A stretch of 64,000 nucleotides of DNA from Blastocatellia bacterium (lineage in GTDB: Bacteria > Acidobacteriota > Blastocatellia > RBC074). This document shows positions 56,212 to 59,146 of this stretch, one piece after another. The DNA lies in assembly GCA_016789725.1 (NCBI GenBank), contig JAEUQN010000004.1:99-64098 (forward strand), in the 5' to 3' direction. Below the pieces are notes generated by a model. It had not been told where the DNA came from. It made no database searches and saw only the letters and a list, made by a program, of their open reading frames with translations. Numbering within the stretch: the stretch's first letter is position 1; each line of letters begins with the position of its first letter. The position numbers and the translations under genes were made by a program.

Positions 56212-58215
56212 CTAAATCAATCCTGCACCGCGTCCGTTTTTGAGATTCCAGATCGCGGCGATCAGCGCATCAATTTCTTCGCAGGTGTTATAAAACGCGA
56301 GCGACGGACGGACGGTGCTTTCCACGCCGAAGCGCCGCAAAATCGGTTGCGCGCAATGATGACCGGTGCGCACAGCAATCCCCTCTTTGTTCAGCGCCTG
56401 TCCGACTTCATCGTTGGTAAAGCCGTCTAATACGAACGACAACACGCTCGCCTTTTCGCGCGCCGTGCCGATCAAACGCAAGCCGGGGATGCGCTGCAAT
56501 CCTTCGGTCGCATAGACCAGCAAATCGTGTTCGTAGCGTGCGATGTTTTCCATCCCGATGCGATCTACATAATCAATCGCTGCACCTAAACCGACCGCAT
56601 CGGCAATGCTGCCCGTACCAGCTTCAAAGCGGAACGGCGCAGGATGGTAGACCGTTTTCTCGAACGTCACATCCACGATCATATTGCCGCCGCCTTGCCA
56701 CGGAGGCGTCGCTTGCAGCACGTCTTCTTTGCCGTAGACTACGCCAATGCCCGTTGGCGCGAAAACCTTGTGACCAGAGAAAACATAAAAATCGCAGTCG
56801 TAAGCCTGCACGTCTACGCGCATGTGCGAAACAGCTTGCGCACCGTCCACCAGCACTTTTGCGCCGTAGCGATGCGCGATGGCGACCATTTCTGGCACGG
56901 GCGTGACCGTGCCAAGCGCGTTGGAGACTTGTGCAAAAGCCACAAGTTTTGTTTTTGGCCCCAGCAGTTTTTCGTATTCGTCGAGCAGAACCTGCCCGCT
57001 GTTGTCTACCGGAGCGACACGCAATCGTGCGCCTTTTTCGGCACACAACATTTGCCACGGCACGATGTTGGCGTGATGCTCCAAATGGCTCACGACAATC
57101 TCATCGCCTTCGTGGATGTTTTGTGCGCCCCAGCTTTTGGCGACGAGGTTAATCGCCTCTGTCGCCCCACGCACGAACACGATTTCGCGCGTCGAGCTGG
57201 CGTTTAGAAAGCGCCGCACTTTTTCGCGCGCTCCGTCATACGCATCGGTCGAGCGCGCCGCCAATTCGTGTGCGGCGCGATGCACGTTGGAATTTTCGTG
57301 TTCGTAAAAATACTTCAGACGATCAATCACTGCTTGCGGTTTTTGCGTCGTCGCCGCGTTGTCTAACCAAATCAACGGACGCCCGTTGACACGCTCCTGC
57401 AAAATCGGAAAGTCGCGCCGCACCGCATTCACATCGAACAATCCAACTGACAAGGCGGATTGCGGCGGCAAATTCGGATCGTTGCCAACTGGTTCCAGAA
57501 CAGGCGCAACTGCTGTGAGCGAACGCGCAGAATCCAAAAACGGAAACGACGTCGCATCGTAACCACGTGGCACAGGCGCACCCGGAATTTGCGGCGTAGC
57601 GACTGAAGCAACAGGCATCGTCGGAACCAATGTTGGCGCGTGTCCCGGCAACGTCGGCGCATATCCACGCACTTCGGTTTCGGTCGGCAGCTTGATGGCA
57701 GGCATCGCCACTTGCTCTGTCTGCTTCACCGTTTGCTCAAACAGAGAACGCGCTTCGCTCAAAAATCCAAACGAAGGCACATCCGAAAAATCTGCTGCCG
57801 ACGCGCCGCCGGGAATGCCGAGCGCGTTGGGTTCGGCCAACAGAAGCTGCGCCGGGGAAGTGGGAATCGTCGTGCCGCTGATGCCCGCCGCTTCAGCCGC
57901 CACTTTGTGCAACTCTGCTTCTGTGAGATGCGGCGGTGCAGAGATAGCAGACAGATGCGGCGCGACACCAAACGGAGAATAGGTCGCAGGCGGCGCAGCG
58001 CGTGTCGGCAGATTTGTCAGCGCGGCTTCTGGCGTTTGCGGAATGTTTGGCGCGGGCAATTCACTCGCAGCGCCCTGTTGCTGCAACCCCTGATAAATCT
58101 GATTGGCAAAGCGCGCCAAGACCGTTGGATCAGGCAAGCCAGCGGCCAAGGCTTGTGCTGCGCCAGACAAATCCGCCGCAATGTCTTCGGGCGTGAAATT
58201 AGTATTTGTACTCAT
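56212..58215 (-). CDS. cysteine desulfurase (SufS/CsdA-like class V PLP enzyme) with ~255-aa disordered N-terminal encapsulin-loading domain
   Basis: Start at ATG 58215 (MSTNTNF). The N-terminal part is Pro/Ala-rich and contains LARFANQIY. The C-terminal part has RDFPIL...IWLDNAATTQKP, SGHKVFAPTGIG (PLP Lys) and RTGHHCAQP (catalytic Cys). Confidence 0.9.
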   Translation of the reverse strand: MSTNTNFTPEDIAADLSGAAQALAAGLPDPTVLARFANQIYQGLQQQGAASELPAPNIPQTPEAALTNLPTRAAPPATYSPFGVAPHLSAISAPPHLTEAELHKVAAEAAGISGTTIPTSPAQLLLAEPNALGIPGGASAADFSDVPSFGFLSEARSLFEQTVKQTEQVAMPAIKLPTETEVRGYAPTLPGHAPTLVPTMPVASVATPQIPGAPVPRGYDATSFPFLDSARSLTAVAPVLEPVGNDPNLPPQSALSVGLFDVNAVRRDFPILQERVNGRPLIWLDNAATTQKPQAVIDRLKYFYEHENSNVHRAAHELAARSTDAYDGAREKVRRFLNASSTREIVFVRGATEAINLVAKSWGAQNIHEGDEIVVSHLEHHANIVPWQMLCAEKGARLRVAPVDNSGQVLLDEYEKLLGPKTKLVAFAQVSNALGTVTPVPEMVAIAHRYGAKVLVDGAQAVSHMRVDVQAYDCDFYVFSGHKVFAPTGIGVVYGKEDVLQATPPWQGGGNMIVDVTFEKTVYHPAPFRFEAGTGSIADAVGLGAAIDYVDRIGMENIARYEHDLLVYATEGLQRIPGLRLIGTAREKASVLSFVLDGFTNDEVGQALNKEGIAVRTGHHCAQPILRRFGVESTVRPSLAFYNTCEEIDALIAAIWNLKNGRGAGLI

Positions 58216-59146
58216 GATAGTTTCCGACTTCCACGTCATCGAGGGCAGCAATCGCATCGTCCGTCAGAATCGCGGCGGAGCAATACAACGACACCAGATA
58301 TGAACCAACTGCATTGTGATTCAGGCCCATAAATCGCACGGACAGTCCCGGCGTTTGTTCGCCCGGCAAGCCCGGTTGATACAGTCCGACAACACCTTGT
58401 TTTTGCTCGCCAACGCGCAACAACAAAATGCTAGTCTTGCCGCCTTCGCCCACAGCCGGAGCTGTTTTGCCGTCCACCATTAACTTATCAGTTGGAACTA
58501 AAGGAATGCCGCGCCACGTCAAAAATGATGAACCGAACAATGTTGCCGTCGGCGGAGGCACGCCGCGTCGTGTGCATTCGCGTCCGAACGCCGCAATCGC
58601 GCGCGGATGCGCCAGAAAGAACGATGGTTCTTTCCACACTTTAGAAATCAAATCATCCAGATCATCCGGCGTCGGCGGTCCTTTGCGCGTTTTGATGCGC
58701 TGTGCGGCAGGCACGTTTTTCAGCAAGCCGTAATCGTCGTTGTTAATGAGTTCGCTTTCCTGCCGTTCTTTGACAGTTTCGATGGTCAAGCGCAATTGCT
58801 CTTTGATTTGATCGTATGGATTGCTGTACAGGTCAGACGTGCGCGTGTGAACGTCCAGCAAGGCCGAGATGGAATTCAGCGTGTATTCACGCGGCTTTTC
58901 TTCATACGGCACATAAGTGTCGGGTAATGGCTGGGTTTCTTCCTGCCCGCAAACAACATCTACCGGATTATCGCTGACGACGCGATTGACGCGCAGCGTG
59001 CCTGCTTCGAGGGGTTTCCAATCCAGCAACCGCACCAGCCAGCGCGGCGTGATTGCGCCATACTGCGGCGGGGTTTTCGTGACATTGGCCAATTGATAGG
59101 CCGCTTGATCGCTGAGGGTGTGACGTACTTTATCGTTCTTAGCCAT
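58199..59146 (-). CDS. Family 2A encapsulin shell protein (HK97-fold, SrpI/MMP-I-like)
   Basis: 315 aa. Full-length block similarity (from memory) to Family 2A encapsulins: [134 protein letters not shown]. No cNMP-binding insertion. Confidence 0.9.
   Translation of the reverse strand: [315 protein letters not shown]

Follow-up and report, generated by a model that had tools for sequence, protein, structure and literature searches.

The shell gene and the desulfurase gene

The DNA analyzed here, referred to as the window, is a 64,000-nucleotide (nt) stretch of contig JAEUQN010000004.1 from a Blastocatellia bacterium. Two overlapping genes on its minus strand, one for a protein of 315 amino acids (aa) and one for a cysteine desulfurase of 667 aa, very probably form a canonical minimal two-gene Family 2A cysteine-desulfurase encapsulin system. 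The original prediction, made from the DNA letters alone, had placed the shell gene at 58199..59146(-); a reading frame of 315 codons is present there, and six sequence blocks quoted from the protein were all found in the translation. The cargo gene lies at 56212..58215(-), and its product begins with MSTNTNF. In the profile search that had been proposed as a check, both proteins scored above the cutoffs of the curated Family 2A models. The E-values behind the identification of the pair range from 1e-103 to 1e-270, which excludes chance. Related loci, numbered L001 and so on, are the best 80 loci from a scan of GTDB contigs with one genome per species. In 76 of the 80, the shell gene is followed by a same-strand desulfurase gene whose product is extended N-terminally by about 90-510 aa.

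By its profile matches, the 315-aa protein is a Family 2A encapsulin shell. It scored 513 bits against NF041162 (encap_f2a, the NCBIfam equivalog model for Family 2A shells; cutoff 380) over model positions 1-295 of 295, and its sole Pfam match was PF19307 (SrpI-like; 346 bits, cutoff 22.8). Among PDB sequences, residues 1-313 aligned with residues 1-305 of the 8t6r chain (E 2e-139), and SrpI (6x8m) aligned over the full length (E 5e-132). Identity by tblastn is 67% to the shell of Acinetobacter baumannii 118362 (PDB 8T6R; PMC10836720; residues 1-313) and 65% to SrpI of Synechococcus elongatus PCC 7942 (PDB 6X8M, 6X8T; PMC8049743; window residues 11-315). The solved mycobacterial MMP-I shells (PDB 9KSL, 8WOL, 8WON) also align over the whole length, with E-values of about 1e-118 to 1e-122; they come from actinobacterial hosts and are less close to the window shell than those of proteobacteria and cyanobacteria. 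With 8t6r and 6x8m, both solved, the protein aligns over its full length with few gaps and 65-67% identity, and by this homology the HK97 fold is practically certain. Both the N-terminal arm and the extended C-terminus of the shell are present, as the 8t6r alignment begins at residue 1 and the stretch VEVGNYHEY is kept in relatives.

The assignment to subfamily 2A, which the original prediction had based on the lack of an insertion that binds cyclic nucleotide monophosphate (cNMP), was borne out. A Pfam scan of the 315-aa protein gave no match to the cNMP-binding domain PF00027, and the Family 2B model and structures cover only its C-terminal core, in two split stretches; the subfamily is therefore 2A. 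The homology to Family 2B shells (PDB 9BJE, 9BIX, 9BHU) is confined to the HK97 core at window residues ~58-310, with E-values of 1e-79 to 1e-89. Family 2B shells are 470-477 aa long and by published definition carry the cNMP-binding insertion, whereas the window shell has 315 aa and lacks it. According to published surveys, the cargo of Family 2B is mostly terpene-related.

The pore residues named for SrpI are Arg192, Gly194, Pro196 and Arg304 (PMC8049743), and alignment maps them to R193, G195, P197 and K314 of the window shell. The codons of R193-R194-G195-V196-P197 lie at 58556..58570(-) and correspond, via the PDB alignment, to the fivefold-pore residues of SrpI. No variation was seen at R194, G195, V196 or P197 across 38 relatives, and almost none at R193; the published criterion for the fivefold pore is that Gly194 and Pro196 of SrpI are conserved and Arg192 is variable (PMC8049743). 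The pore loop is also conserved between the A. baumannii and window shells. Relative to 8t6r and 6x8m, the window shell has a 9-residue insertion at residues ~225-233 (58448-58474; GKTAPAVGE, 8-9 residues). It is common to all but one of 37 close relatives aligned, none of which falls below 77% identity to the window shell. The insertion and one additional C-terminal residue set the window shell apart from that of A. baumannii.

The cargo gene encodes a SufS-type (group II) cysteine desulfurase domain dependent on pyridoxal phosphate (PLP), at 56212..57450(-). The protein scored 899.5 bits against NF041166 (f2_encap_cargo1, the model for Family 2A cargo cysteine desulfurases; cutoff 800) over model positions 12-623 of 623. 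It passed the SufS subfamily model TIGR01979 with 565 bits (cutoff 475) and matched PF00266 with 494 bits over residues 282-651. Among PDB sequences, 8kg1 aligned with residues 258-661 at an E-value of 1.6e-189; many SufS structures also matched, and E. coli SufS/CsdB entries (1JF9, 1I29) reached E-values of about 1e-134, being homologous over ~400 aa and sharing the PLP lysine and the catalytic cysteine. The two catalytic residues, which had been predicted from their motifs, are Lys483 (codon 56767-56769(-), in SGHK from residue 480) and Cys621 (codon 56353-56355(-), in HHCAQP from residue 619).

The first 255 residues, encoded at 57451..58215(-), form an Ala/Pro-rich N-terminal domain that is predicted from its composition to be disordered and to serve in cargo loading. 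It contains 17% Ala and 14% Pro, with Pro, Ala, Gly, Ser and Thr together making up 53%, in agreement with the earlier description of a Pro/Ala-rich region of this length. The domain is 83% identical to its counterpart in L001, the closest related locus; the shell and the catalytic domain are 98% identical. Two motifs, LARLANEFFS and AASPYYFLDG, have been described in the disordered N-terminal domain of the cargo (Nichols et al. 2021, PMC8049743), and motifs of both types occur in the S. elongatus and window cargo. Motif 1 in the window is LARFANQIYQ (residues 33-42; 58090..58119(-)). Motif 2, F-x-F-L-x-x-A-R-x-L, occurs twice, from residues 149 and 224, as FGFLSEARSLFE (residues 149-160; 57736..57771(-)) and FPFLDSARSLTA (residues 224-235; 57511..57546(-)). 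Its consensus in relatives, PSFSFLxEARPLF, is akin to the published AASPYYFLDG. Two copies of motif 2 are the commonest state, found in 39 of 77 cargo proteins (those of 76 related loci and the window's own). An alignment of 64 cargo N-terminal domains showed about five islands of conservation at the expected places. In the Acinetobacter system, five short, partly conserved motifs separated by disordered linkers contact the luminal surface of the shell (Benisch et al. 2024, PMC10836720). The A. baumannii cargo has the same layout as that of the window, a disordered N-terminal loading domain of ~225-255 aa followed by a SufS-type domain.

A second cargo protein was considered and rejected, because a six-frame scan of the window found loading motifs confined to the desulfurase, apart from two matches in open stretches of 50 and 137 aa outside the called reading frames. 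In some acidobacterial cargo proteins (L060, L062 and L071; genes from ~8890) the N-terminal domain reaches about 500 aa, twice as long as usual, and contains F-x-F-L-x-x-A-R-P-L-F three times. This suggests an internal duplication of the loading domain.

The overlap of shell and cargo

The longest reading frame of the cargo is 56212..58257(-), with in-frame ATG codons at 58257, 58236 and 58215. The last of these overlaps the 3' end of the shell gene (Y-H-E-Y-K-Y-stop) by 17 nt, at 58199..58215(-). Read on the minus strand, the junction is GAA GTC GGA AAC TAT CAT GAG TAC AAA TAC TAA, and the cargo ATG is made by the cAT-Gag of shell His311-Glu312. Of 76 related loci, 73 have an ATG at the equivalent site, inside the shell codons for Y-[H/Y]-[E/D], where the two genes overlap by 11, 14 or 17 nt; a RefSeq annotation of Azospirillum places a 14-nt overlap there as well. 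The recurrence of the embedded ATG across related loci supports 58215 as the cargo start, and with it the 667-aa protein and the 17-nt overlap of the original prediction. About 9 nt upstream of the ATG, conserved Val-Gly codons (GTN-GGN) provide a GG-rich stretch.

From these comparisons the overlap appears as a trait of the family and not as a peculiarity of the window locus. The H-D/E codon context in A. baumannii would permit the same embedded start. In contrast, srpI and cyd on the S. elongatus plasmid pANL are separated by a gap of 234 nt. Translational coupling of the cargo to the shell is a reasonable inference. No discussion of it for Family 2A was found in the papers searched, and the embedded start is a small point on how the shell-to-cargo ratio might be set.

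Relatives and genomic neighborhood

More than 8000 homologues of the window shell have E-values of 1e-20 or lower, the nearest being 97% identical among the matches listed; the exact protein had no record in a sequence look-up. Among the best 80 loci are several from Blastocatellia and dozens from other Acidobacteriota, with the cultured Tunturiibacter lichenicola and Acidobacteriaceae KBS 89 represented; Bacteroidota, Planctomycetota and Leptospira also occur. L001, 98% identical, comes from the Acidobacteria metagenome-assembled genome (MAG) SZAS-15, and the sequence comparison agrees with the earlier view that the host is Acidobacteriota-like. Published surveys count 1281-1462 Family 2A desulfurase operons in 11-13 phyla. 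Desulfurases co-occur with 94.9% of Family 2A shells at a median distance of 1 gene (PMC8049743 suppl. 2), and the window, where the cargo gene follows the shell immediately on the same strand, matches this pattern.

The original prediction had regarded the system as unstudied in this lineage. This is overstated: we found no paper on an acidobacterial system, but the gene pair itself is carried by dozens of Acidobacteriota genomes, and an NCBI record already gives the name 'family 2A encapsulin nanocompartment shell protein [Blastocatellia bacterium]' to a protein with 90% identity. No mention of Acidobacteria was found in the text of the encapsulin surveys, the supplementary lists of PMC10836720 lying outside the search. 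The locus is a further example of the frequent occurrence of desulfurase encapsulins in soil Acidobacteriota, which the surveys consulted do not name in their main text. Work on cyanobacterial, Acinetobacter and mycobacterial systems has already established the structure of the family, its loading mechanism and its ability to store sulfur. Both window genes are named automatically by the NCBI pipeline, and the significance of the locus lies mostly in its correct annotation. Two MAGs each hold two Family 2A shell-desulfurase loci on separate contigs (L026 and L038 in SPRUCE 139; L065 and L079 in binchicken_co3_537), which are either paralogous systems or binning artefacts.

Downstream of the cargo, after 25 nt, lies a gene of the DOPA 4,5-dioxygenase family at 55494..56186(-) (PF08883, E 1.9e-21; PDB 2peb, 'putative dioxygenase', E 1.4e-21). 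Its product has an N-terminal extension of ~105 aa that contains a twin-arginine-like signal (TRRNFII…AEA; TRRNFIIGAGLTAAGLTAGNIEAEA). The next gene, 54932..55384(-), encodes a regulator of the Rrf2 family (PF02082, 126 bits; TIGR00738 above cutoff) with three cysteines placed as in the iron-sulfur (Fe-S)-binding members; the CymR, IscR and NsrR equivalog models all scored below cutoff. Genes for sulfate uptake by an ATP-binding cassette (ABC) transporter follow: the substrate-binding protein sbp at 53788-54840(-) (TIGR00971, 234 bits), CysT at 52934-53791(-) and a CysW-like permease at 52081-52986(-), with the models TIGR02139 and TIGR00969 above their cutoffs. A tblastn search with CysA of L001 found no cysA in the 64-kb window.

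The gene order in L001 is cysA, shell, cargo, DOPA-dioxygenase-family gene, Rrf2, sbp, cysT, cysW, so that the pair is nested in the transporter cluster. The CysA-type ATPase gene (6406-7632) stands directly upstream of the shell gene there. At the DNA level the window and L001 are syntenic over 48954-59155 (~87% identity), and the point where synteny is lost, 9 nt ahead of the shell ATG, looks like a rearrangement breakpoint. The dioxygenase-family gene follows the cargo in L001 (11040-11735) and L002 (11018-11713) and is absent from the other 78 of the 80 loci. In all three genomes, including that of the window, it stands between the encapsulin pair and genes of sulfate assimilation; in L002 the genes beyond it resemble, by eye, cysC and a cobA/cysG-type methyltransferase. 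Its presence in only 2 of 80 related loci weakens the case for a conserved encapsulin accessory.

Upstream of the shell gene, a 147-nt intergenic region (59147..59293(-)) presumably holds the promoter and ribosome-binding site, with AGGGAAAG 4 nt before the ATG. An alignment of the shell-upstream DNA with L001 and L002 showed no real conservation. Farther upstream is a cluster at 59294-62695(-) that encodes a 479-aa secreted protein, a protein with a DsbD_N domain and a TlpA/ResA-like thioredoxin of 431 aa, much of it an N-terminal extension. The secreted protein has a single CxxCH motif (CTQCH) and gave no match in Pfam, NCBIfam, PHROG or PDB. It recurs with the thioredoxin upstream of the encapsulin in L002 (1760-6012; 71% and 72-73% identical, respectively), not in L001.

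Other loci have a different set of recurrent neighbors. ThiS-ThiF-rhodanese fusions occur in 25 loci, CysK-type proteins in 13, serine acetyltransferase in 11 and JAB proteins in 7; O-acetylhomoserine sulfhydrylase (6), TauE (4) and Rrf2 (3) are rarer. Searches of the 64-kb window by tblastn with neighbors from related loci found no CysK, JAB, O-acetylhomoserine sulfhydrylase or TauE, and the Rrf2 regulator is the only recurrent neighbor with a homologue in the window. On pANL, which is a plasmid, cysK and serine acetyltransferase genes precede srpI and a rhodanese gene comes after cyd. The pANL and window loci share a sulfur-metabolism context and an Rrf2 regulator a few kb away, whereas it is sulfate-transporter genes and the dioxygenase-family gene that flank the window pair. 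The Acinetobacter operon consists of rhodanese, serine acetyltransferase, shell and desulfurase genes, and the window operon has the last two only. Rhodanese and serine acetyltransferase are present in roughly half of the published operons, and are described as 'often' present, while shell and cysteine desulfurase are found in every one (PMC10836720). ABC-transporter permeases adjoin 38% of Family 2A shells (PMC8049743 suppl. 2). The neighborhood had been called atypical, which is overstated: rhodanese and serine acetyltransferase genes are missing, but the two-gene operon, the ABC permeases and the Rrf2 gene fall within known patterns. The neighborhood is lineage-specific in detail and thematically ordinary.

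Some features of these surroundings are minor. A thymidylate-kinase-like reading frame at 51299-52084(-) overlaps the cysW stop by 4 nt; it has weak PDB matches to thymidylate kinases, no Pfam match, and a degenerate P-loop (GIAGSNRT against GxxGxGKS/T). The segment of ~1.5 kb around it, 50542-52100, has no counterpart in L001. A beta-class carbonic anhydrase gene (PF00484) adjoins Family 2A shells in four acidobacterial loci, including L025 (6927-7895), and one is also found less than 5 kb from srpI on S. elongatus pANL (L081, 991-1569).

Proposed function of the compartment and alternative explanations

A mechanism for the window pair can be proposed by homology with the S. elongatus, A. baumannii and mycobacterial systems. 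Sixty copies of the 315-aa HK97-fold protein would self-assemble into a T=1 icosahedral shell of ~24 nm. The desulfurase would be captured inside through the short hydrophobic motifs of its 255-aa N-terminal domain (LARFANQIY once, F-x-F-L-x-x-A-R-S-L twice), which would dock onto the luminal surface of the shell. L-cysteine would enter through the small fivefold pore formed by the conserved RRGVPP loop, and the PLP enzyme, with Lys483 and Cys621, would produce alanine and a persulfide from it. Sulfur builds up as protected elemental sulfur in the Acinetobacter system (PMC10836720), and we infer a similar storage function here. Ribosomes that finish the shell probably reinitiate on the cargo, since the cargo start lies inside conserved C-terminal codons of the shell; this would tie cargo synthesis to shell synthesis. 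The sulfate-uptake operon and the Rrf2 regulator alongside fit a role in sulfur limitation.

No result contradicts this account of the pair, but some limit it. Knockouts in S. elongatus grew without a phenotype (PMC8049743), and storage, detoxification and channeling are all candidate roles for the family as a whole. An AlphaFold2 model of the shell, built on a 38-sequence alignment with no row below 77% identity to the query, reached a mean predicted local distance difference test (pLDDT) score of 36.5 and a predicted template modeling (pTM) score of 0.30. The shallow alignment is probably behind the low pLDDT; the model was discarded, and the HK97 fold of the shell therefore rests on homology. 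Between 50500 and 63000, a scan for sigma-70 promoters found 0 against 7.2 expected by chance, and one for intrinsic terminators found 21 against 20.5 expected. As these counts are at or below chance level, the operon boundaries were taken from gene spacing. A search of the intergenic regions for a shared operator-like palindrome or repeat gave only short matches at chance level and no Rrf2 site. As no promoter, terminator or Rrf2 operator was identified, co-regulation with the sulfate genes is a conjecture. Finally, neither rhodanese/ThiF nor serine acetyltransferase was found in the 64-kb window by tblastn with neighbors from related loci, which makes the operon a minimal shell-desulfurase form inside the published range (PMC10836720).

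It is possible, although rather doubtful, that the same compartment does another job than storing elemental sulfur, mainly disposing of cysteine that is toxic or in excess during redox stress, or else channeling persulfide to a dedicated acceptor encoded elsewhere in the genome. Both detoxification and channeling have been raised by the authors working on the model systems (PMC10836720, PMC8049743). The lack of a rhodanese acceptor in the window favors such a job, as does the thiol-disulfide cluster (TlpA-like, DsbD_N) upstream of the pair, although this cluster is not syntenic in L001. However, sulfur storage was shown directly for a shell 67% identical to that of the window with the same type of cargo (PMC10836720), and the context in the window is sulfate uptake, not oxidative-stress genes.

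The two remaining alternatives deny that the genes form a compartment with its cargo. That the desulfurase serves Fe-S cluster assembly as a housekeeping SufS, unpackaged and merely adjoining the shell gene, is highly improbable. The TIGR01979 match, the close similarity to SufS structures and the nearby Rrf2 regulator, whose family includes IscR and SufR-like regulators, are what such an enzyme would be expected to show. Housekeeping SufS, however, lacks an N-terminal loading domain and its gene belongs to a sufABCDSE operon, whereas the window protein carries a 255-aa extension with both loading motifs, and family scans found no sufBCDE genes adjacent to it. It also falls below the cutoff of the SufS equivalog model (515 vs 661) and above that of the cargo model, and the adjacency and overlap of shell and cargo are conserved across phyla. 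A probability close to nil attaches to the idea that the shell gene is the remnant of an HK97-type major capsid gene of a prophage. The HK97 fold is common to encapsulins and tailed-phage capsids (PMC8049743), and the shell has one weak PHROG match of 27 bits with no assigned function. Against this, the shell passes the encapsulin equivalog model and is accompanied by a dedicated cargo gene, and the prophage origin was rejected because the G+C content is uniform across the region and no portal, terminase, protease or tail family was found among the genes scanned around the shell.

The identification of the pair as a desulfurase encapsulin can be extended into a broader proposal, which we consider unlikely. 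In this Blastocatellia-like lineage the pair would not be an operon standing by itself but a module of a single sulfur-limitation regulon, inserted in a sulfate ABC-transporter cluster and placed under Rrf2 control of the Fe-S type rather than control of the LysR/CysB type, with the twin-arginine-exported protein of the DOPA-dioxygenase family as a lineage-specific accessory. Separately, the embedded Y-H-E start would be a family-wide device that fixes the ratio of shell to cargo. Apart from this proposal, the locus illustrates that the minimal two-gene form can directly adjoin sulfate-uptake genes.

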